From assembly GCA_036787775.1 (NCBI GenBank), contig DAIQOR010000003.1:9466-73465 (forward strand): 64,000 bases of DNA, given 5' to 3'. A model generated the notes under the pieces. The model was given only the letters and a program-made list of their open reading frames with translations, was not told where the DNA came from and did no database searches. The position numbers and the translations under genes were made by a program. This document shows, piece after piece, positions 1 to 59,352 of the stretch (positions within the stretch are counted from its first letter, which is position 1; each line of letters starts with the position of its first letter). The DNA comes from a bacterium (GTDB lineage Archaea; Nanobdellota; Nanobdellia; Pacearchaeales; GW2011-AR1).

Positions 1-17
1 TTTTATATTGTTTCTAT

Positions 18-101
18 GCGGGAATGCCGGAGTGGTCAAACGGGACAGGCTTAGGACCTGTTAGCTTAGTGCTTACTTAGGTTCGAATCCTAATTCTCGC
101 A
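18..101 (+). tRNA. tRNA-Leu (anticodon TAG), class II with long variable arm
   Basis: Cloverleaf read by eye: acceptor gcgggaa/ttctcgc (one G-U), anticodon stem acagg/cctgt with loop cttagga, 15-nt variable arm, T-arm ttagg-ttcgaat-cctaa, discriminator A; 84 nt. Confidence 0.8.
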
Positions 102-111
102 TTTTTTAGAA

Positions 112-2882: not shown

Positions 2883-4730
2883 ATGAGAACAATAATATTT
2901 TTAGTTTTTGGAATATTTATTTTAATTAGTTTGAATTTTGTCTTTGGTGCGAGTATTGAAGATGTTGGAAGTGTTGTTGATATGGATAAGGCGGAATTGC
3001 AAGGAGAGGGAGTTGATTATTCTATTCTTAACGAGGCTGAGACGAGAGAAAATGGTGCGGTGGTTTCGATTAAGATTGTTGATGAAGATGGAAGTTTTTG
3101 TGTTAGAGGAAATTGTTATGAAAATATTGATAAAAGTAAAACAAATTATTTTGATTTAGATGCTGAGGGAAATATTGTGAGTGCGAGTTTTGTGACAACT
3201 GGCGAAGGGAATTATACTCTTGGAGAAGATGAATATTTTTTGCCTAAGGGGACGAGTGTTGAATTTAGGGAAGGGAAGGCTGTTTTGAGTGGGGATGGTG
3301 ATTTTAAGATAAGAAAAGATGGATGCAAAGACCAATCAATATCATTTATAGAAAGGTTTCGGGAAGGAGATTTAATTATAGAGAATATGAAAGGTTGTGA
3401 AAGAAGACTTAAATCACGACAGATTATTTTTTTAATTAATAATGATTCATATTATTGTGGTTTTTGTGATGTTACCTTGGACGAATATGGAAGATTGCAA
3501 AAAATTGAAAAGGGAACTAGATTAGTTGGGGGCCCCCCTAAATTTTATAATTTTCGTCATGAATCTGTTAATCAAAACACCAATTTTTATTATAATTCAA
3601 ATTTTAATCCTGAAGAACATGAAAATGAAAATTATATAAATATTGATGGGAATAAATGGAGTATCGGCGGAGAAAATTTAAAGGTTGATTTTGGACCAAC
3701 ATCTAGTTTATTTTTAGGCATTGATGAGTCCTTTACTTTTTTTGAATTGACTGCTTCTGGGAAAACTAATATCTATGTTGATAATGGGAAGATTCGCGTG
3801 GACTCCTTTGGATATTCTGATTTAGAAACAGAAAATTTAAATGTTTTTACGTCTAATAATGGAAAAATCTTTAAGAAAATAATGAGTAATACCTATAATG
3901 AAGTTGGAGAAGATGTCTCTAAAGCAGATATGTTGATTACAACTTTTAATGAACATGAAAATATTGTTTCAACCATGAATGTCGATAAAGAAGGAAGTAT
4001 TTTTTCTGAAGAGGGGGATTTTTCTTTGTATTCTTCTCCGGCAACAGATACTATTGTGTCTCCTGATGAAAGATTGAATAAGTTTGAAGATAGAGATAAG
4101 GCAAGAGAGCAATTGAGGAATGAGGGGATAACTGATGAAAGGAGACAAGCTTATCTTCCAGAGGTGAGCGAATTTCTTTATAAACATATTAATGCCATTT
4201 GCGATTATGAAAATTATAATCTTGGGTTTGTAAATAATTTGGTTGGGGCTTTTGAAAATAATGAGGATCATTGTATTTCTTTTTGGGAAAGAAAAATCGC
4301 TAAAGGGGGGAGTTATGTTCCAGAAGATTTGTTACGAGCTTATATGGGATTGCCTCAAAAATATGGATCTCTTGGAGTTTCAGATTATCAACCTTCTATA
4401 AGTACCGAAAACAAATATTATTATAAGGTGAATAATTTTATTTCTGGGGAAAATATTAATTTTCTTTTAGAACGAATAAGTTTGGGGGAGGGTGATGAGA
4501 TAATTGAAAGAAAAAGCGGAGATTCAATTGTTTTTGGAGGAACTTTGGGAAAATATACTTTATCTCGGGGGAAAGATTCTTGTGGTTTTTATATTTCATA
4601 TTATGATATTTGGGATTTAGAACCGAATCTGTTGGAGGGTTTTGTTGGCAAGCCGTTTGAATTGTATGACCGAGTTTATTATGAACCTCTTACGTATGAA
4701 ATAATTGAAAATCCTTGTGGGAATGAATAG
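2883..4730 (+). CDS. large secreted protein, paralog 1 (signal peptide, unknown family)
   Basis: N-terminal signal peptide MRTIIFLVFGIFILISLNFVFGA; shares N- and C-terminal modules with 5509..7335; 615 aa. Confidence 0.6.
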   Translation: MRTIIFLVFGIFILISLNFVFGASIEDVGSVVDMDKAELQGEGVDYSILNEAETRENGAVVSIKIVDEDGSFCVRGNCYENIDKSKTNYFDLDAEGNIVSASFVTTGEGNYTLGEDEYFLPKGTSVEFREGKAVLSGDGDFKIRKDGCKDQSISFIERFREGDLIIENMKGCERRLKSRQIIFLINNDSYYCGFCDVTLDEYGRLQKIEKGTRLVGGPPKFYNFRHESVNQNTNFYYNSNFNPEEHENENYINIDGNKWSIGGENLKVDFGPTSSLFLGIDESFTFFELTASGKTNIYVDNGKIRVDSFGYSDLETENLNVFTSNNGKIFKKIMSNTYNEVGEDVSKADMLITTFNEHENIVSTMNVDKEGSIFSEEGDFSLYSSPATDTIVSPDERLNKFEDRDKAREQLRNEGITDERRQAYLPEVSEFLYKHINAICDYENYNLGFVNNLVGAFENNEDHCISFWERKIAKGGSYVPEDLLRAYMGLPQKYGSLGVSDYQPSISTENKYYYKVNNFISGENINFLLERISLGEGDEIIERKSGDSIVFGGTLGKYTLSRGKDSCGFYISYYDIWDLEPNLLEGFVGKPFELYDRVYYEPLTYEIIENPCGNE

Positions 4731-4777
4731 TTTAATTCTTAGAAAAGGTTTTTATATAAGAATTTGTTTAGTTAGTT

Positions 4778-5497
4778 ATGAAAAAAAGAGGACAGGTTAC
4801 TATTTTTATAATTGTGGCAATTGTGATAATTGTTGCGGGGGCGATAATTTTTTTTGTAAATCAAAAATCTAATTCTGCAATTAATTTGCAAGGTGATGAA
4901 GTTGGTTTGAGGGTTGAAAGTTGTTTGGAGAACTCTTTGGCTTTGGCGATTGTTTCTAATTCTCTTCAGGGAGGATATTTTGATTCCGAAGAATCTGGTT
5001 ATTATTTTGAGGATGGGAAATCTAATGTTCCTTCAAAAGAGGATTTGGAAAATAATTTATTGCTGGGCGTCGAGGGTATTTTCGGAAGTTGTTTGAATTT
5101 TTCTGATTTGCCTGGTGAGGTGAAATATGATTTGGAGAGAGCTATTTTTAAAATTGAAGGTGAAAATAATCTTATTAAAATTAATTTAAGATTGCCTATT
5201 ACTTTGAAGATGGATGATTCTTCTTTGGTGGTTGATGAGTTTAGTTCAGAGATTGAGACGGATTATTTTAATTTTTATAATGTTGCGGTTGAACTAACTC
5301 AGGAGCAGGAAAAACATGTTGATGAAATTTGTTTGAGTTGTGCGACGGATATTGCTGGACGAGAAAGAGTTTCAATTGTTTCTTTAGAAGGACAGAAAGA
5401 GGGAAATGATATTTTGATTTATACAATTTCAAAAGATAGAGAGGATGTTTTTAATCCATTGTTTATCTTTAAGCATAAATTTAAATTAGTGGAATAG
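4778..5497 (+). CDS. archaeal type IV pilin-like protein (class III signal peptide)
   Basis: MKKRGQ followed by a ~20-aa hydrophobic stretch VTIFIIVAIVIIVAGAIIFF, resembling a prepilin peptidase KG/Q cleavage site; 239 aa. Confidence 0.55.
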   Translation: MKKRGQVTIFIIVAIVIIVAGAIIFFVNQKSNSAINLQGDEVGLRVESCLENSLALAIVSNSLQGGYFDSEESGYYFEDGKSNVPSKEDLENNLLLGVEGIFGSCLNFSDLPGEVKYDLERAIFKIEGENNLIKINLRLPITLKMDDSSLVVDEFSSEIETDYFNFYNVAVELTQEQEKHVDEICLSCATDIAGRERVSIVSLEGQKEGNDILIYTISKDREDVFNPLFIFKHKFKLVE

Positions 5498-5508
5498 TTA
5501 ATAGGATT

Positions 5509-7335
5509 ATGAAATTTAGAGGATTATTTTTGTTTTTGTTTATTTTAATTAGTTTGAATTTTGTCTTTGGTGTGAGTATTGAAGATGTTGAAAGTTTGAT
5601 TGATCAGGAAAAAGCACAATTGCAAGGTCAAGGTATTGAATATATTATTTTTAACGAGGCTGAGACGAGAGAAAATGGTGCGGTGGTTTCGATTAAGATT
5701 GTTGATGAAGATGGAAGTTTTTGTGTTAGAGGAAATTGTTATGAAAATATTGATAAAAGTAAAACAAATTATTTTGATTTAGATGCTGAGGGAAATATTG
5801 TGAGTGCGAGTTTTGTGACAACTGGCGAAGGGAATTATACTCTTGGAGAAGATGAATATTTTTTGCCTAAGGGGACGAGTGTTGAATTTAGGGGAGGGAA
5901 GGTTGTTTTTGTTGGGAACGGAGATGTGGTAATAAACACAAAAGAAAATAAAAAATTTAATTTATTGTTGAATCCTGGTGTAAATGTTGAGGTGGAATTT
6001 TTGGAAAGGGGGAAAATGGTTTTTAGTGGAAGAGTGTTTACAATTAATGGATATTCTGGTGGTTCTTTGTCTTCAGAAGAACAAATTTCTATAATTTTTG
6101 ACAATCTTGGAAGAGTGTTGAGAGTTGAAGGAAAAGGTTTTATGCTTGGAGATGTAAGGGATTTTTCTTTAAATAATAAAGATTATTTGAATTTTTATTA
6201 TGGAGCAGATTTTAATATTTCAGCTCATAAAGATGAAAATTATTTTTATGAGGATTTGACAAGTGGGGTTTTGTATGCTGGAGGAGATTATTATTTGACT
6301 GAGCATTATGTTACCCGTTCGGGATTTAAGAGTATTTTTAGTTTAGTCCCGAATGGAAATGTTGAGATATCTAAGGGGAGGGGGTTAGCGAGAGTTTTAT
6401 GTGAGGGTTCTACAATTATTAATTCTGGTTATTTTAACACCTTGAGGATTTCTGAGGATGGGAAAATTTTTAAGAGATTTAATAGGGGATCTTTTTTTGG
6501 GAAATCTGAAGAAGAAATAAATCAAGAGGAGATTGATTTAGAGGTTGTAGTTAAATCTGGGGATGAATCTTCAAATTTAAACTATGATGGAACAAATAAT
6601 GTTTATTCTTCTGAGGGAGAGGATTTTTCTTTGTATTCTCTTCCAGCAAGAGACACTATTGAAGCGTCTGATGAGAGATTGAATAAATTTGAGGATAGAG
6701 AACGTGATAAACAATATTTTTTGGAACATGGAATAACTCCTGAATTAGAAAGAGGGTATGTTCCTAAAGTTAGTGAATGGTGGCAAGAAAATTTTAATCC
6801 TGCAGGAGATTATGTCTATGATTTAGCTACGCAGGATCCTATACAATTTATTAGAAATTTTAATGATAGGTTTAAAAGGGGGGCTACAGCATTTACTCAG
6901 GGAACTTCAACAGGAAGAGAAGATGCTTGGAGATTGTATTTGGGGATGCCCCAACAAGATAATACTTTTTCAATTTCAAAATATCAACCTTCGATAAGCT
7001 CGGAAAATAGATATTATTATAAAATAAATGAGTTTAGTGAGTTTGAAAATGTTCAACAAGTTTTATATAGAATCTCTCAAGGTGGAAAATCCAGAATTAA
7101 TGTAGACTCAGTTGTGATTCCAGATATGGGGGGGGCAGAGGGAGGAGTTGGTTTAAGAGACTATACACTTTCAAAAGGAAAAGATTCTTGTGGTTTTTAT
7201 ATTTCATATTATGATAAATGGGATCTGACTCCGAATAAGTTGGAAGGTTTTTTCGGAACACCTTTGGAAATTTATGATAGAATTTATTATGATCCAATTA
7301 CTTATGAGAAAATTGAAAATCCTTGCGGAAACTGA
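5509..7335 (+). CDS. large secreted protein, paralog 2
   Basis: Signal peptide; 243 nt (5651..5893) 100% identical to 3028..3270; C-terminal KDSCGFYISYYD..YDR.YY.P.TYE.IENPCGN shared with paralog 1; 608 aa. Confidence 0.6.
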   Translation: MKFRGLFLFLFILISLNFVFGVSIEDVESLIDQEKAQLQGQGIEYIIFNEAETRENGAVVSIKIVDEDGSFCVRGNCYENIDKSKTNYFDLDAEGNIVSASFVTTGEGNYTLGEDEYFLPKGTSVEFRGGKVVFVGNGDVVINTKENKKFNLLLNPGVNVEVEFLERGKMVFSGRVFTINGYSGGSLSSEEQISIIFDNLGRVLRVEGKGFMLGDVRDFSLNNKDYLNFYYGADFNISAHKDENYFYEDLTSGVLYAGGDYYLTEHYVTRSGFKSIFSLVPNGNVEISKGRGLARVLCEGSTIINSGYFNTLRISEDGKIFKRFNRGSFFGKSEEEINQEEIDLEVVVKSGDESSNLNYDGTNNVYSSEGEDFSLYSLPARDTIEASDERLNKFEDRERDKQYFLEHGITPELERGYVPKVSEWWQENFNPAGDYVYDLATQDPIQFIRNFNDRFKRGATAFTQGTSTGREDAWRLYLGMPQQDNTFSISKYQPSISSENRYYYKINEFSEFENVQQVLYRISQGGKSRINVDSVVIPDMGGAEGGVGLRDYTLSKGKDSCGFYISYYDKWDLTPNKLEGFFGTPLEIYDRIYYDPITYEKIENPCGN

Positions 7336-7481
7336 TTAATTTTTTTGTTTTATCGTCGGGAAATTTATTTTTTCGTATTAATAACCTTAGTGCACAAACC
7401 GCAGGTGGCCTGAAAGAAATTAGTTGGAAAAAATAGGGAAATAGAAAGATTTTAAATAAGATTATTTCTTGGTTTAATTAT

Positions 7482-7556
7482 GCCTCGGTAGCTCAGCCTG
7501 GATAGAGCACTAGCCTTCTAAGCTAGGGGTCGCAGGTTCAAATCCTGTTCGGGGCA
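7482..7556 (+). tRNA. tRNA-Arg (anticodon TCT)
   Basis: Acceptor gcctcgg/tcggggc (two G-U), anticodon stem ctagc/gctag with loop cttctaa, T-arm gcagg-ttcaaat-cctgt; 75 nt. Confidence 0.75.
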
Positions 7557-7558
7557 TT

Positions 7559-7631
7559 GCGCGGGTGGCACAGCGGCTACTGCGCTTCCCTGCAGAGGAA
7601 GTTTCCGTGGGTTCGAGTCCCACCCCGCGCT
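7559..7631 (+). tRNA. tRNA-Cys (anticodon GCA)
   Basis: Acceptor gcgcggg/cccgcgc perfect, anticodon stem cttcc/ggaag with loop ctgcaga, T-arm gtggg-ttcgagt-cccac; lies 2 nt after tRNA-Arg. Confidence 0.7.
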
Positions 7632-7652
7632 TAATTTACGAGAACCCGGTTC

Positions 7653-7749
7653 GACGAGCAACTCTGAAATTTCGAATAAATGAGCAACGAAAATAAAAAG
7701 CGAATTTAAAGAATATTTCACGGGTTGGGAGCACCATCCCCGCGCTTAA
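7653..7749 (+). repeat. tRNA-associated element fragment (second-half module) plus degenerate direct repeat of the tRNA-Cys 3' end
   Basis: 7653..7734 is ~80% identical to the reverse complement of 54318..54399; 7738..7749 ccccgcgcttaa repeats 7623..7634; the preceding ~20 nt mimic the Cys T-arm. Confidence 0.7.
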
Positions 7750-7783: not shown

Positions 7784-9451
7784 ATGGCTTATGTGGTCAA
7801 ACAAAATGTTAATGGTGGCGATTACTATTATCTTCGGAAAAGTGTGCGTGAGGGCGGTAAGGTGGTGAGTAAGAGCATTGCATATCTTGGGAAGACAAAA
7901 ACCGAAGCAGATAAAAAGGCAAAAGAGATAATTAAGAACATGGGTAATTTAGATGTTGCAAAAAGTGAGAGTAAGGCGGTGAAAAAGTTAGTCTGTGAAC
8001 CGACGAATATTTCTATCGAGGAGTTGGCAAATTTTTGTAAATCGAAAGGATTTGTTTTTAGAAGTTCAGATATTTATGGGGGGCTTTCAGGTTTTTGGGA
8101 TTTTGGTCCGTTGGGAGTTGAGTTGTTTAAAAATTTAAAAGATGATTGGTGGAATCATTTTGTTTATCAAAATACAAATATGGTTGGAATGGAAGCGAGC
8201 ATTATTTCTCATCCAAGGACGTGGAAGGCTTCTGGGCACATAGAAAATTTTAATGATTTGGCTGTTGTTTGTAAGAAATGTAAAAAGGGAACTAAGATTG
8301 ATGTTTCTGAAGAAGGAAAAGTTAAATGTGAATGCGGGGGCGAGTTTGAAGTTAAAGGGAAATTTAGTTTAATGTTTAAAACAAATGTTGGAGCATTGAA
8401 TTCGGAAGTTGCTTATCTCCGAGGAGAAACCGCGCAAGGAATGTTTATGAATTTTAAATTGATTCATCAAACTTCGAGAATGCAATTACCTTTTGGTGTT
8501 GCCCAAATTGGAAGATGTTTTAGAAATGAGATTGCTCCGAGGGATTTTTTATTTAGATGTAGAGAATTTCATATTGGAGAGTTTGAATTTTTTATTCATC
8601 CTGAAGAGAAAAAATGTGAATTGCTCGACGATAAACATCTTAAAGTGAAATTTAGAATTTTGGATGCAGAGACGCAGGTTGCTGGAAAAGATGGTTTGAA
8701 AGAAGTTGCTATGAAAGAACTTGTTGCAAAAAATAAACTTGATGAGTGGCATGCTTATTGGTTGGCTGAACAAATTTTTTGGTTTAGAAGTTTAGGTTTG
8801 GATAAAATAAAAATTCGAGAGCACACAAAAGAGGAATTGAGCCATTATAGTTCTGCGACTTTTGATATTGATTATGAATATCCGTTTGGAAGTAAAGAGG
8901 TTGCGGGAAATGCAAATCGGGGACAATATGATTTGATGCAACATCAAAAAGAAAGTAAACAAAGTATGGAAGTTTTTGATGAGAAAACTAAACAGAAGGT
9001 TTTACCGAGGGTGATTGAGCCAACTTTTGGAATGGAAAGAGTTTTTTTGGCTATTTTAACTAATGCTTATTGTGATGATAAATCTCGAGGAAATATTGTT
9101 TTGAGAATTCCTGCGAAGCTTGCGCCTATTAAAGTTGCAGTTTTTCCTTTGATTAAACAAAAAGAATTTGAAGATTTAGCGAAAGGAGTTTCAAAAAACT
9201 TAGGAGAAGAGTTTAATGTTTGTTATGATAAGTCTGGTTCAGTTGGTAGACGATACGCGCGTAATGATGAAATTGGAACTCCATTTTGTGTAACCATCGA
9301 CGGTGATTCAGTAAAAAATAATGATGTTACAATTAGAGATAGAGATACAACAAAACAAATTCGTGTAAAAATTTCTGATTTGAAAGAAATTTTAAGAAAA
9401 TTAATTAATTCTGAGATTGAATTTGAAAAAGCAGGAAAATTAATAAATTAA
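7784..9451 (+). CDS. glyS: glycyl-tRNA synthetase (archaeal/eukaryotic alpha2 type) with ~50-75-aa N-terminal extension
   Basis: SDIYGGLSGFWDFGPLG and class II motifs; the first ~52 aa (GGDYYYLRK..GGKV..YLGK) are not part of canonical GlyRS; 555 aa. Confidence 0.85.
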   Translation: MAYVVKQNVNGGDYYYLRKSVREGGKVVSKSIAYLGKTKTEADKKAKEIIKNMGNLDVAKSESKAVKKLVCEPTNISIEELANFCKSKGFVFRSSDIYGGLSGFWDFGPLGVELFKNLKDDWWNHFVYQNTNMVGMEASIISHPRTWKASGHIENFNDLAVVCKKCKKGTKIDVSEEGKVKCECGGEFEVKGKFSLMFKTNVGALNSEVAYLRGETAQGMFMNFKLIHQTSRMQLPFGVAQIGRCFRNEIAPRDFLFRCREFHIGEFEFFIHPEEKKCELLDDKHLKVKFRILDAETQVAGKDGLKEVAMKELVAKNKLDEWHAYWLAEQIFWFRSLGLDKIKIREHTKEELSHYSSATFDIDYEYPFGSKEVAGNANRGQYDLMQHQKESKQSMEVFDEKTKQKVLPRVIEPTFGMERVFLAILTNAYCDDKSRGNIVLRIPAKLAPIKVAVFPLIKQKEFEDLAKGVSKNLGEEFNVCYDKSGSVGRRYARNDEIGTPFCVTIDGDSVKNNDVTIRDRDTTKQIRVKISDLKEILRKLINSEIEFEKAGKLIN

Positions 9452-10523: not shown

Positions 10524-10555
10524 AAAAAATAAATGGCTCTGAAGAGAATTTAACT
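10524..10555. repeat. direct repeat copy of the tRNA-Met 3' end plus flank (32-nt exact copy of 10638..10669)
   Basis: aaaaaataaatggctctgaagagaatttaact occurs at 10524..10555 and 10638..10669. Confidence 0.85.
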
Positions 10556-10647
10556 ACAACTCAATCATTGAAAAGTTGTCATTAATATTTTATTTTGCAC
10601 TTTCCAATAATTTCGCGACCTCTGTCGGTCTCGAGTTAAAAAATAAA

Positions 10648-10719
10648 TGGCTCTGAAGAGAATTTAACTCTCGACCTCTGCCTCATGAGAGCAGCGCTCT
10701 AACACTGAGCTACAGAGCC
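10648..10719 (-). tRNA. tRNA-Met (anticodon CAT), elongator type (G1-C72)
   Basis: Reverse complement folds: acceptor ggctctg/cagagcc, anticodon stem ctgct/ggcag with loop ctcatga, T-arm gagag-ttaaatt-ctctt (unusual T-loop lacking C56); 72 nt. Confidence 0.7.
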
Positions 10720-31347: not shown

Positions 31348-31407
31348 CTTTCTTTTAAATGAGTAAAACTCAAATTATATAAATCTAACTTTTTTAGTAA
31401 AGTGATT

Positions 31408-31479
31408 GGGCCTATAGTTCAGTGGATAGAATAACAGGTTTCGGCCCTGTTGACCGAGGTTCGAATCCTCGTAGGCTCA
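31408..31479 (+). tRNA. tRNA-Arg (anticodon TCG)
   Basis: Acceptor gggccta/taggctc, anticodon stem acagg/cctgt with loop tttcggc, T-arm cgagg-ttcgaat-cctcg; 72 nt. Confidence 0.7.
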
Positions 31480-31496
31480 TTTGAATTTGAACCGGT

Positions 31497-31574
31497 GGTT
31501 TCGTTTTACCACGCTTGGGAGAACGAGCGAGCGACTTGTTCGCGACGCCGAATCCTCGTAGGCTCATTTGAATT
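31497..31574 (+). repeat. tRNA-associated element core (53 nt) plus 25-nt direct repeat of the tRNA-Arg 3' end
   Basis: 31497..31549 is 51/53 identical to the reverse complement of 54400..54452; 31550..31574 is an exact copy of 31463..31487. Confidence 0.85.
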
Positions 31575-31681
31575 TTTTAAAAATAAATTCACAAATAACT
31601 TTTTATACTGGTTTGTTTTTATTTTGTTATGAAAGAAGTAAATCAAATATTTTCATACTTTCATTTTAGGGGGAATTTAAA

Positions 31682-32812
31682 ATGAAAGGTGATACAAAAA
31701 GATTTTTTTCGGCGTCGGCAATCCTGATTGGAACTTGCATTGGTGCTGGCGTTTTGGCGATTCCGTATGTTGCGGTGCAGTCGGGTTTTTTTGTTGCGCT
31801 CGGTTATATTCTATTTATTGGTTTGATGTTGATGGTTGTTAATCTTTATCTTGGAGAAATTTCTTTGAGGACGAAAGAGAAACATCAGCTTGCGGGATAT
31901 GTTGAGAAATATCTTGGGAGAAAAGCGGGCTGGGTTATGGAGTTTGCTTTTGTGTTTGGGATTTATTCGGCGATAATTGCGTATCTTTTGGGAATTGGCG
32001 GGAGCATTAGTTTTTTGGTTTATGGTGATTTGAGTCATACTTTATTGTTCGGAGTTTTGTTTGGGGTTTTTATGTCGGCTTTGATTTGGAGGGGTTTGAA
32101 GTCGCTTAAGTTTTTTGAGAAGGTCGGGGTTTCACTTGTGTTTTTGTTGCTCATTTTAATTTTTATAATTTTCATAAAAGATTTTTCTTTTGTTAATTTG
32201 ACTGGTTTTAATTCTTCGAATATTTTCTTGCCGTTTGGAGTTGTGCTTTTTGCGTTGCTATCTTTTAGTGCGATTCCGGAAGTTAATCTTGTTCTGAAAA
32301 AGAACGAGCATCTTATGAAACGAAGTATTCTTTTTGCGATTGTGTTTTGCACGATTTTTTATGCTTTGTTTACACTTATTATTGTTGGTGCAAAAGGTTT
32401 TGAAACGCCAGAAATAGCGACGCTGGCGTTGGGAACTATTTTTGTTTTCTTTGGTATTTTGACAATGTTTACTTCTTATCTTGCGTTAGGAAATGCTTTG
32501 AGGGATAATTTGAAATATGATGAGAGAATGAGTCGTTTTAAAGCGTGGTTTTTTTCTGCAATAATCCCTGTTGTTGTTTTTGCTTTGATAAATTATTTTG
32601 ATATTTTTTCATTTAGTAAAATTCTTTCTATTGGAGGTACTATTGCGGGAGGATTGACTGCAATTTTAATTTTATTTTGTGTGAAGGTGGCGAAGAAAAA
32701 AGGAAATAGAAAACCTGAATATAGTTTTCCACTTAATTGGTTTATTTTAGGAATTGTGACTTTGATATTTGTTTTGGGAATTGTTCAAGAAGTTTGGGGG
32801 ATTTTGGTTTAG
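31682..32812 (+). CDS. amino acid permease (APC-superfamily-like), ~11 TM
   Basis: Topology and G-rich TM1 (IGTCIGAGVLAIP) typical of aromatic/amino-acid permeases. Confidence 0.5.
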   Translation: MKGDTKRFFSASAILIGTCIGAGVLAIPYVAVQSGFFVALGYILFIGLMLMVVNLYLGEISLRTKEKHQLAGYVEKYLGRKAGWVMEFAFVFGIYSAIIAYLLGIGGSISFLVYGDLSHTLLFGVLFGVFMSALIWRGLKSLKFFEKVGVSLVFLLLILIFIIFIKDFSFVNLTGFNSSNIFLPFGVVLFALLSFSAIPEVNLVLKKNEHLMKRSILFAIVFCTIFYALFTLIIVGAKGFETPEIATLALGTIFVFFGILTMFTSYLALGNALRDNLKYDERMSRFKAWFFSAIIPVVVFALINYFDIFSFSKILSIGGTIAGGLTAILILFCVKVAKKKGNRKPEYSFPLNWFILGIVTLIFVLGIVQEVWGILV

Positions 32813-44138: not shown

Positions 44139-44378
44139 ATGACATGTGGCGAATGCGATGAAGAAATTGAAGATGTTGAAGAAGATTCAGATGAAGAAGA
44201 ATCAGAAAATGATTCTAGTGAGGATTCAGATGATGATTCTGAAGATGTAGAAGAATCTGAAGATGAAGTTGAAGAAGAGGTTATAGAAGGGTCTGATGCG
44301 GAAGATGAAGTTGTAGAAGAAGATTCCGATGATGATGACGATGACGACGATTCCGATGATGATGAGGATGAATATTAA
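44139..44378 (+). CDS. hyperacidic protein (N-terminal MTCGECDEE, then ~70% D/E/S)
   Basis: 79 aa; strong aggagg Shine-Dalgarno-like sequence 9 nt upstream. Confidence 0.45.
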   Translation: MTCGECDEEIEDVEEDSDEEESENDSSEDSDDDSEDVEESEDEVEEEVIEGSDAEDEVVEEDSDDDDDDDDSDDDEDEY

Positions 44379-44501
44379 TCTTTCTCATTTTTTATTTTTA
44401 TTTTTATTTTTTATTGGCTAGTTTGTACCTATTTTTTAGGGCATGGAAATGTTTAAAAACTGAACAAATAAATAGTTTTATTCTAAATTGGAGGGTTGAA
44501 A

Positions 44502-44582
44502 ATGCCTGAAGACGAATATGACGATGACTATAACGAAGATGACGATGACTTCGATGCAGACGATGACTACGACGACGAGTAA
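44502..44582 (+). CDS. small hyperacidic peptide MPEDEYDDDYNEDDDDFDADDDYDDE (26 aa)
   Basis: ggaggg 7 nt upstream of the ATG. Confidence 0.3.
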   Translation: MPEDEYDDDYNEDDDDFDADDDYDDE

Positions 44583-54303: not shown

Positions 54304-54452
54304 AACGTCCCGAGAAGTGCTCTCAATCCGTGAAATGTTCTTTAAATTCGCTTGTTAAATTTTCTCGCTCTTTTATTAGAAATTTCAGAATTGCTCGTCG
54401 GCGTCGCGAACAAGTCGCTCGCTCGCTCTCCCAAGTGTGGTAAAACGAAACC
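54304..54452. repeat. tRNA-associated element (repeat of the tRNA-Asn 3' end, second-half module, 53-nt core); near-complete copy
   Basis: 54304..54317 repeats 54477..54490; 54318..54399 is ~80% identical to the reverse complement of 7653..7734; 54400..54452 is 51/53 identical to the reverse complement of 31497..31549. Confidence 0.85.
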
Positions 54453-54478
54453 TAAGGTTCTCGTCCTATTTTTAAAAA

Positions 54479-54551
54479 CGTCCCGAGAAGGACTCGAACC
54501 TTCGACCTAACGGTTAACAGCCGTTCGCTCTACCGACTGAGCTATCGGGAC
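54479..54551 (-). tRNA. tRNA-Asn (anticodon GTT)
   Basis: Reverse complement: acceptor gtcccga/tcgggac, anticodon stem aacgg/ccgtt with loop ctgttaa, T-arm gaagg-ttcgagt-ccttc. Confidence 0.75.
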
Positions 54552-54601
54552 ATGAAAATCTTACAGCAAATTTCCTTTTAAAGTTTATCTTTTCGGGACG
54601 T

Positions 54602-57713: not shown

Positions 57714-57822
57714 TCGTGAGCCAAAGATAAAGAGTAAAGAGTTAGTAAAGAGGACACTTTAAAACCCCCGACCACTCGCCCCTAAAATGTAGAAATTGTT
57801 GTAAATACGAAGTGAGCCGCCT
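57714..57822. repeat. left arm of ~110-nt imperfect inverted repeat
   Basis: Blocks tcgtgagcca, aaagaggacacttta, agaaattgttgt, gtgagccgcc recur in reverse complement and the same order at 59253..59352. Confidence 0.75.
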
Positions 57823-59252: not shown

Positions 59253-59352
59253 GGCGGCGGCTCACAAAACAAAAATACACAACAATTTCTATTGTAAAAT
59301 GGACAGCGTCCCGCCGTCCTAAAGTGTCCTCTTTAAAATTAATATGGCTCAC
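59253..59352. repeat. right arm of inverted repeat (pairs with 57714..57822)
   Basis: See left arm. Confidence 0.75.

Follow-up and report, generated by a model that had tools for sequence, protein, structure and literature searches.

In the 64-kb stretch of archaeal DNA analysed here (contig DAIQOR010000003.1; hereafter the window, in whose numbering coordinates are given), the 103 nt that separate two copies of the tRNA-Cys 3′ end (7635–7737) are probably a complete member of a family of small (~60–235 nt), non-coding, hairpin-built insertion elements, non-autonomous and directed at the tRNA T-loop. The family would be a kind of tRNA-targeting mobile DNA and is undescribed as far as literature searches show; a 2026 survey of 208 Nanobdellota genomes likewise held no description of these units. 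Transfer RNA genes are classic landing sites of mobile DNA, and their known occupants are kilobase-sized, each with an integrase of its own and an unvarying copy of the 3′ end of a single tRNA. In the present case, a non-coding hairpin of ~100 nt, conserved to the degree of a tRNA, is found at many tRNA 3′ ends in the smallest archaeal genomes known. The preliminary description of this locus had taken the insert for all that was left of the integrated DNA (only ~100 nt); instead, at more than 40 loci the element consists of this 60–235-nt unit and nothing else, and no longer, gene-carrying version was seen.

Units at the tRNA 3′ ends of the window

The window comes from an AT-rich DPANN archaeon. 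Its glycyl-tRNA synthetase (GlyRS) is identical to a protein listed by NCBI under Candidatus Pacearchaeota archaeon, the next closest GlyRS being just 79% identical. ARAGORN and Rfam agreed on six tRNAs (Table 1), four of which (Cys, Met, Arg-TCG and Asn) carry inserts of 60–159 nt between exact repeats of their own 3′ ends (12 nt for Cys, 14 nt for Asn, 27 nt for Arg-TCG and 31 nt for Met). No unit lies behind tRNA-Leu or behind tRNA-Arg(TCT); tRNA-Cys starts 1 nt past the end of the latter (7557–7559) and, because of this single-base gap, the two genes probably share one transcript. In relatives tRNA-Arg(TCT) and tRNA-Cys stand apart, and tRNA-Arg(TCT) bears a hairpin unit of its own.

The exact 12-nt repeat of the tRNA-Cys 3′ end reported in the preliminary description is indeed present behind the insert (7623–7634 vs. 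7738–7749); this 12-mer, CCCCGCGCTTAA, is unextendable on either side and has just these two exact occurrences in the window. Within the left arm of the insert, GAACCC is an inverted copy of the T-arm GGGTTC, alone not significant (p = 0.14), and GGTTCGA is a direct copy of the T-loop start (p = 0.02), the arm CGAGAACC-N-GGTTCGA recurring in L140, L143, L144, L146, L154 and L171. The AT-rich hairpin B that follows, the conserved core of the family (covariance-model match 7651–7735, 82 bits), is separated from the distal repeat by a 4-nt filler, which elsewhere measures 0–6 nt. Segment 7653–7734 agrees with the reverse complement of 54318–54399, beside tRNA-Asn, in 72 of 84 columns (85.7%, slightly above the ~80% first claimed), and sub-patterns of this module match these two places of the window alone, with 0.00–0.01 matches expected from shuffles. 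The stretch CACGGGTTGGGAGCA, earlier read as a degenerate Cys T-arm, belongs to the hairpin, whose conserved right arm it forms, since other genomes have the identical sequence beside tRNA-Arg, -Pro, -Asn and -Leu. Coincidence, or a plain local tandem duplication without any element, has next to no probability: tandem doubling does occur (L007, L172 and L158), but the patterns match where no match is expected, and the module stands at unrelated tRNAs in many genomes.

Three modules fill the inserts of the window, namely hairpin B (Cys and Asn), the GC-rich module A (Arg-TCG and Asn; 56 of 61 positions identical between the two loci) and the AT-rich hairpin C (Met; fold z = −5.0). The region 31480–31580, earlier proposed for alignment with the Cys and Asn loci, does share a module with the tRNA-Asn locus, but this is A and not B; the fourth locus, tRNA-Met, was absent from that description. 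At tRNA-Asn the insert holds inverted and direct T-arm pieces (GAACCTT/AGGTTTCG), module A (~54400–54460), which is nested between the GGTTCG and the ACGAG of the left arm's T-loop-like sequence, and hairpin B (model match 54316–54401, 77 bits). The Arg-TCG insert sits within the copied T-loop (..GGTTTCG[A]CGAATCC..). The covariance model of B matched neither hairpin C nor module A in the window; it is their shared architecture that may make A and C kin of B.

Table 1. Transfer RNA genes of the window and the units behind them (window coordinates).
Feature	Position	Strand	Evidence or content
tRNA-Leu	17–102		ARAGORN, Rfam
tRNA-Arg(TCT)	7481–7557		ARAGORN, Rfam
tRNA-Cys(GCA), intact	7559–7631	+	ARAGORN; Rfam RF00005, 58 bits
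Cys, proximal direct repeat CCCCGCGCTTAA	7623–7634	+	final 9 nt of tRNA-Cys and 3 nt of flank; exact 12-mer
Cys, left arm of insert	7635–7654	+	tttaCGA, GAACCC (7642–7647), GGTTCGA (7648–7654)
Cys, hairpin element B (family's conserved core)	7655–7733	+	CGAGCAAC TCTGAAATTTC through GAATATTTCACGG GTTGGGAGCA
Cys, filler CCAT (4 nt), hairpin to distal repeat	7734–7737	+	read from sequence
Cys, distal direct repeat CCCCGCGCTTAA	7738–7749	+	GlyRS promoter region next, ATG at 7784
Met, 31-nt repeats	10638–10668, 10524–10554
Met, insert (83 nt)	10555–10637	−	CTCGAGACCga, CAGAGGTCGCGA, AT-rich hairpin C
tRNA-Met(CAT), intact	10648–10719	−	ARAGORN, Rfam
tRNA-Arg(TCG), intact	31407–31480	+	ARAGORN, Rfam
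Arg-TCG, 27-nt repeats	31462–31488, 31549–31575
Arg-TCG, insert (60 nt)	31489–31548	+	GAACCggtGGTTTCG, then module A
Asn, 14-nt repeat CTTCTCGGGACGTT	distal 54304–54317, proximal 54477–54490	−	exact
Asn, insert (159 nt)	54318–54476	−	spacer, T-arm pieces, module A, hairpin B
tRNA-Asn(GTT), intact	54478–54552	−	ARAGORN, Rfam

Viewed over many loci, the unit follows one order: the intact tRNA with 1–10 nt of flank, a spacer (in many cases a short hairpin plus T-run), often an inverted part-copy of the T-arm, a direct copy of a variable-loop/T-stem/T-loop segment, the hairpin and, at the end, the remaining tRNA 3′ end with its flank. The direct piece to the left of the hairpin is specific to the local tRNA, as at Met in the window (CAGAGGTCGCGA for CAGAGGTCGAGA in the tRNA) and in L094 (CGTTCGATTC), L069 (TTCAAATC), L139 (GGTCGTGG) and L149 (GGTCGGGA), where it is identical to the tRNA sequence. 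The ‘tRNA 3′-end repeat’ is therefore the tail of another, 5′-truncated copy of the tRNA, broken by the hairpin at or close to its T-loop. Among 27 tRNA-linked inserts tested against shuffles, the direct piece reached significance in 20 and the inverted piece in 14 (each p < 0.05). The duplicated target measures 11–80 nt, with the element within one of its copies. Different hairpins occupy the same slot (A, B, C and at least three more), some of them bracketed by CGAG..(C/G)GAG, and arrays contain up to four copies of a tRNA 3′ end.

The hairpin B family

Loose pattern scanning of one genome per species gave at least 13 matches in DPANN metagenome-assembled genomes among the matches listed, several of them sharing one genome; this DPANN genome count is a lower bound, because the loose pattern also listed ~105 random bacterial matches. 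Stricter scanning of Joint Genome Institute metagenomes yielded 29 loci. A covariance model (R1), built from 37 distinct copies of B, found 46 matches (41 distinct copies), all on DPANN contigs, with scores of 36–92 bits (at least 55 bits for all except the two weakest), and none in 100 non-DPANN loci that fitted the loose pattern. Run with its filters off on the window, it returned the two copies already known (82 and 77 bits), the next best match scoring 19 bits. No counterpart of hairpin B was found in IMG/VR by pattern scans or in GenBank phages by BLAST, and the lone viral match was a chance 18-mer in a GC-rich phage. Rfam at its gathering threshold gave only tRNAs in the window and, at E ≤ 10 over the Cys and Asn loci, nothing meaningful. 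DPANN archaea of the Nanoarchaeota class (Pace-/Woesearchaeota) are thus the specific hosts of this family.

Copies of B are 73–91 nt long and non-coding, and 30 of the 41 distinct copies lie within 201 nt of a called tRNA. Most of these (23/41) stand 20–201 nt 3′ of a co-oriented tRNA, six are 3′ of a tRNA with the hairpin reversed (the tRNA-to-hairpin distance being 20–201 nt in these 29 copies), and one sits at a duplicated promoter plus 5′ half of tRNA-Gln. ARAGORN called no tRNA within 330 nt of the other 11, several of which trail tRNA-like 3′ ends or lie deeper in arrays. Two copies are at the duplicated 3′ end of a protein gene containing GGCGTTCGAAG, and three lie in a small promoter-plus-RNA-like unit that contains GGCGAG and is duplicated, B occupying its second copy. 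The module is thus not scattered over many non-tRNA positions free of repeats, an outcome that the preliminary description had named as one that would speak against its reading: both window copies adjoin tRNAs, and copies away from tRNAs usually carry target repeats. At least 14 tRNA types are occupied by B, in either orientation: Cys, Asn, Glu, Pro, Gln (two isoacceptors), Arg (two), Thr, Ser (two), Leu (four), Phe, Tyr, Met and Gly.

The small promoter-plus-RNA-like unit was observed at L028:700–1000, L073:1250–1560 and L122:350–650, where B lies in the second copy of a tandem ~110-nt unit resembling a promoter followed by a ~45-nt small RNA (..AATCCTGAAAGGCGAG..CGAGTATAAAGATTTTT).

A shared promoter or 5′ untranslated region had also been named as an alternative. 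The right half of the hairpin (GCGAA TTTAAAGAAG) would then serve the downstream gene as B recognition element (BRE) and TATA box. The sequence does resemble an archaeal BRE plus TATA box, a start would be predicted near the hairpin/repeat junction by known archaeal spacing, and each of the four window units has a co-directional gene next downstream. Over the 32 scorable copies, however, the next open reading frame (ORF) past the hairpin is co-directional in 16 and convergent in 16, the orthologous copies in L140 and L146 have unrelated downstream DNA, and the left arm and the covariation of the stem would be left unexplained. Given the even split in orientation above all, we regard a portable promoter or 5′ untranslated region as very improbable.

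From a plain MAFFT alignment RNAalifold predicted a hairpin of 20 pairs with compensatory changes at six of them. In the model-based alignment 97.8% of the cells pair and 12 pairs are changed on both sides, values to be read with the alignment having been fitted to the model and the search patterns having imposed part of the invariance; this level of pairing was reached by none of 500 shuffles, and slid partners paired at 24–61%. Covariation extends beyond the modelled pairs into the outer stem (GAGCAAC/GTTGGGAG, GAGTAAT/ATTACGAG, GAACATCT/AGTGTGAG, GAAGATCT/AGTCTGAG and GAGAATCT/AGTTCGAG). Tandem 5′-GA/5′-GA mismatches are conserved in both the base and the apical stem, the central loop is variable in length, and the hairpin is bracketed on both sides by (C)GAG, with CGAG/TTCGA in the targets. 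At variable pairs, G:T outnumbers A:C by 13 to 6, a T:G pair on the forward strand is nearly invariant, and the Cys copy folds better on the forward strand (z = −1.7) than on the reverse (z = +0.1). The G:T bias and the better folding of the forward strand hint weakly at folding of a single strand, be it RNA or single-stranded DNA.

The GA-[hairpin]-GA borders are reminiscent of known RNA motifs; K-turn, C/D, H/ACA and hammerhead were each rejected, as the 3-nt bulge, RUGAUGA/CUGA, the ACA box and the CUGANGA..GAAA core, respectively, are absent.

Possible movement, host function and mechanism

The Cys unit is unchanged in all 10 of the contigs that encode an identical GlyRS. At tRNA-Asn, the site is precisely empty in L169 (same species, with identical FtsZ; k127 assembly), which reads ..GGGACGTT directly joined to CTTATCAC.., with one 14-nt repeat and without the 159-nt insert. 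In L172, a relative with 78% GlyRS identity, tRNA-Cys lies 8 nt upstream of GlyRS without any insert, tRNA-Arg(TCT) and tRNA-Met bear units of their own, and that of tRNA-Met is doubled. Strain L007 has the 83-nt insert and 31-nt repeat of tRNA-Met in two tandem copies. Hairpins at different tRNAs can be nearly identical (Leu vs. Gln 95%; Asn vs. Leu 90%), and one left-end spacer, TATRYTATCTTTAGATAAYATTT, is common to tRNA-Asn (L140/L146) and tRNA-Arg (L171). Empty sites, doubled units, near-identical hairpins and the common spacer together argue for movement between tRNAs.

Several further observations were made at these and related loci. In L172 (3001–3200) the gene caller merged tRNA-Cys, with its 44-nt intron, into a GlyRS ORF of 620 aa, the true start being 8 nt past the tRNA. 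L008 has one single-nucleotide polymorphism in the distal tRNA-Met repeat. A scaffold gap (N run) in L166 (12760–13230) lies between duplicated tRNA-Asn 3′ sequence, exactly at the locus, and the repeats appear to disturb assembly and scaffolding there. In L153, ~270–770 nt 3′ of tRNA-Met, a unit of ~560 nt with a 120-aa ORF stands between copies of the tRNA-Met 3′ end in a hairpin array; the ORF has no Pfam family, and arrays can therefore hold a coding insert. L004 (same species) has an insert of ~40 nt in the anticodon loop of tRNA-Arg(TCT), after CTTCTAA, which the window and eight other contigs lack; this difference is a presence/absence polymorphism of a tRNA intron within one population.

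Mobility has to be weighed against a number of points. No enzyme or autonomous partner was found in the sequences read, mobility being deduced solely from distribution and polymorphism, and the sample was seeded with exact patterns of the element, which inflates its apparent conservation. Copies in one genome differ by 8–17% (the window pair by 14%), so that there was no recent burst. The empty allele of L169 could be a slippage deletion between the 14-nt repeats and not the state before insertion. The hairpin lies inside the second tRNA copy and not between the repeats, a position that simple target-site duplication fails to explain. Finally, at orthologous tRNA-Asn loci of two species (L140 and L146), the hairpin and left arm differ over ~110 nt by one substitution and three indels in the loop, while the tRNA-derived repeat next to them has 5 differences in 13 positions and the downstream DNA is unalignable; with the hairpin kept and the repeat beside it decaying, the hairpin seems to be under purifying selection or to evolve in concert, unlike a purely selfish, decaying copy.

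Such in-situ conservation at the level of a tRNA is also what would be expected of a host-functional structured non-coding RNA, or a DNA structure, that travels with tRNA genes, the tRNA-fragment flanks being by-products of duplication and the hairpin being co-transcribed with the tRNA or driven by an A/T-rich tRNA flank. Consistent with it are the strong covariation, the excess of G:T over A:C with the near-invariant T:G pair, the two conserved tandem G.A motifs, the better folding of the forward strand (the Cys copy, and Met with its z of −5.0) and the three copies behind promoter-like sequence without a tRNA. However, the tRNA-Asn unit is dispensable, because strain L169 has none; the orientation to the tRNA is variable, with 6–7 copies reversed; unrelated hairpins (A, C and others) fill the same slot; and Rfam offers no match even at E ≤ 10. 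On balance a host function seems to us unlikely, albeit well short of negligible; if it were real, DPANN archaea would possess in the hairpin a structured RNA or DNA family that is so far unannotated.

The attL/attR footprint proposed in the preliminary description is borne out as to anatomy (intact tRNA, insert, 3′-end repeat, a precise empty site in L169 and an insert-free site in L172), but not as to integrase-type integration. A virus or plasmid that integrated at the tRNA and was then deleted down to ~100 nt, integrase and cargo included, would likewise leave tRNA 3′-end direct repeats around foreign DNA; the tandem arrays resemble the tandem accretion of integrative elements, and the L153 array does hold a ~560-nt unit with a small ORF. 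The disruption of tRNA-Thr in Caldiarchaeum moreover indicates that a recombinase-carrying element can scatter tRNA fragments in archaea (PMC3293823). Nevertheless, more than 40 loci, spread over 14 or more tRNA types, have the short unit, and a long version was not found; separate deletions would not all end in one and the same conserved, covarying hairpin; no integrase was seen in the window or beside any copy examined; IMG/VR and GenBank phages gave no matches; and the hairpin interrupts the distal tRNA copy instead of lying between intact att sites. A decayed remnant is accordingly improbable.

Under the interpretation that we favour, a small mobile hairpin, the element would lodge at T-loop-like DNA (GGTTCGA / ..CGAG) at tRNA 3′ ends, and a trans-acting enzyme would recognise both the folded hairpin and the CGAG/T-loop target. 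Since the second tRNA copy is interrupted by the hairpin, the direct repeats are to be regarded as target duplication and not as attP leftovers. Only arrangements that keep an intact tRNA are seen, presumably because insertion into a single-copy tRNA would be lethal. The junction, which runs direct, short inverted, direct and turns around at the T-stem palindrome, has the signature of fold-back or template switching and is unlike the conservative crossover of an integrase; the duplication and its inverted junction may thus come about via fold-back or template-switch DNA synthesis at the palindromic T-arm. The unit would be gained and lost whole, loss being precise between the repeats. Alternatively, an excised circle (spacer, inverted piece, direct piece, hairpin and repeat) might re-integrate through the repeat, a route that would give the observed layout as well and account for the precise empty site. 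The fold-back and the circle route are weighed alike here, and the intermediate may be DNA or RNA. Among the called genes, which cover ~60 kb of the window, none belongs to an integrase, transposase or reverse-transcriptase Pfam family. Retro-copying has little in its favour: the right end of the repeat falls at the oligo-T terminator of the transcript for Met and Arg-TCG, but not for Cys, Asn, L120 or L140, and there is no CCA.

A bolder proposal, which we advance tentatively and hold to be unlikely, though with a real chance of being right, is that of a selfish, T-loop-homing hairpin, read as a folded single strand and inserted by target-primed fold-back replication that copies the 3′ part of the tRNA, and/or of a small transcription unit making a hairpin RNA fused to a tRNA 3′ fragment. 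If true, either version would be a mechanism beyond integrases, classical transposases, casposases and group I/II or bulge-helix-bulge (BHB) introns. In the selfish-homing version the T-loop (GGTTCGA/CGAG) would be the one DNA motif that no cell can change, and the host tRNA would survive.

Relation to known systems and other features of the window

Tyrosine-integrase elements (SSV1-type, pNOB8-type and genomic islands) are like the present units in their intact tRNA, foreign DNA and displaced partial 3′ copy, in a second copy that starts at a T-arm crossover site, in the precise empty site and in tandem arrays at one tRNA. Integrases of tRNA genes reportedly cross over at T-loop and anticodon-loop sublocations. 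The present units, in contrast, measure 60–235 nt and have neither integrase nor other genes; one family occupies at least 14 tRNAs, a protein gene and another small gene; and the distal copy is interrupted by a hairpin, with an inverted T-arm piece at the junction and either orientation allowed. Repeats and a precise empty site were found, but neither a recombinase gene among the called genes over ~60 kb of the window nor a single attP specificity, and a classical integrase is not indicated, because a fixed attP does not occupy 14 or more tRNA types.

MITEs (miniature transposable elements with inverted repeats), the REP/REPIN sequences (repetitive extragenic palindromes) mobilised by the RAYT transposase and the IS200/IS605-derived palindrome-associated transposable elements (PATEs) share with the units a short, non-coding, multi-copy and intergenic nature, a long imperfect hairpin and an enzyme encoded elsewhere. 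The arms TCTGAAATTTC / GAAGATTTCACGG of B form terminal inverted repeats as in MITEs. Elements whose transposition passes through single-stranded DNA typically fold in a strand-asymmetric way, and the (C)GAG flanks, the CGAG/TTCGA targets and the G:T excess (13 vs. 6) would suit an IS200/IS605 PATE or a REPIN, yet the target is duplicated. Those families have a fixed short target duplication or none, whereas here it spans 11–80 nt, with the element inside one copy and no fixed short duplication abutting the termini, and targeting of the tRNA T-loop is not known from them. Neither the window nor the flanking DNA read at other copies showed an autonomous insertion sequence with the same termini, a TnpA or a RAYT.

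Integron attC sites are also imperfect hairpins (57–141 nt), in which the arms covary, one base is bulged and the central loop varies; the ..CAAC / GTTG.. ends of one subtype resemble RYYYAAC / GTTRRRY, the T-loop GTTCGAR resembles a core site, and both systems build arrays beside a fixed site. Unlike in integrons, the content between hairpins is a tRNA fragment and not cargo, and target duplication is not known as a trait of integrons. An attC identity was rejected, the CAAC/GTTG subtype alone fitting and CAAT/ATTG, TAAT/ATTA and CATCT/AGTG not, with no IntI seen in the window. Casposons, which span several kb, end in terminal inverted repeats, encode Cas1 and PolB and make a duplication of constant length, resemble the units in being archaeal, in inserting at tRNA 3′ ends and in their long (14–15 bp) target duplication; they were rejected on the lack of genes in the insert and on its variable duplication length.

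Archaeal BHB tRNA introns have been proposed to transpose between tRNA genes (Thermoproteales). They too are short hairpin-like inserts, present at non-canonical positions (the T-arm among them), with related sequences at different tRNAs, but the hairpin here lies in a promoterless, 5′-truncated pseudo-copy and not in a functional tRNA. A BHB intron was ruled out on two counts: the upstream tRNA is complete without the hairpin (ARAGORN, Rfam), and what the borders (CGAG-CAAC ... GTTG-GGAG) form is a helix bracketed by tandem G.A and bulged by 1 nt, in place of the 3-4-3 motif. Tandem inversion duplications, or template switches at quasi-palindromes, share the order direct, short inverted, direct, and have their turn-arounds at a palindrome (here the T-stem) as well as at hairpins immediately 3′ of the tRNA; those events are sporadic, whereas here dozens of sites always have a conserved foreign hairpin.

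If the hairpin is mobile, it points to a trans-acting enzyme and to universal T-loop targeting that spares the gene. The tRNA-like fragments and repeats can confuse tRNA annotation, the prediction of att sites and islands, and assembly, and the units can serve as presence/absence markers for strain tracking.

Further features were noted in the window and in a strain of its species. Two tandem paralogous genes (2901–5497 and 5524–7335) encode proteins of ~600 aa with an N-terminal hydrophobic segment, their DNA being 77–91% identical over several blocks; neither has a listed Pfam hit. Within a coding region (44163–44578) lies a GAT/GAA repeat tract rich in D/E. Inverted repeats of 57 nt (57746–57802 and 59279–59335; 70% complementary) enclose ~1.5 kb with three or four small ORFs lacking Pfam hits, a segment that could be another mobile unit. 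In L162 (11167–15073; same species), downstream of a permease gene (window 31682–32812), a strain-specific island comprising a DUF7557/ParE toxin pair, LemA and NUDIX stands in place of the genes that the window has there.

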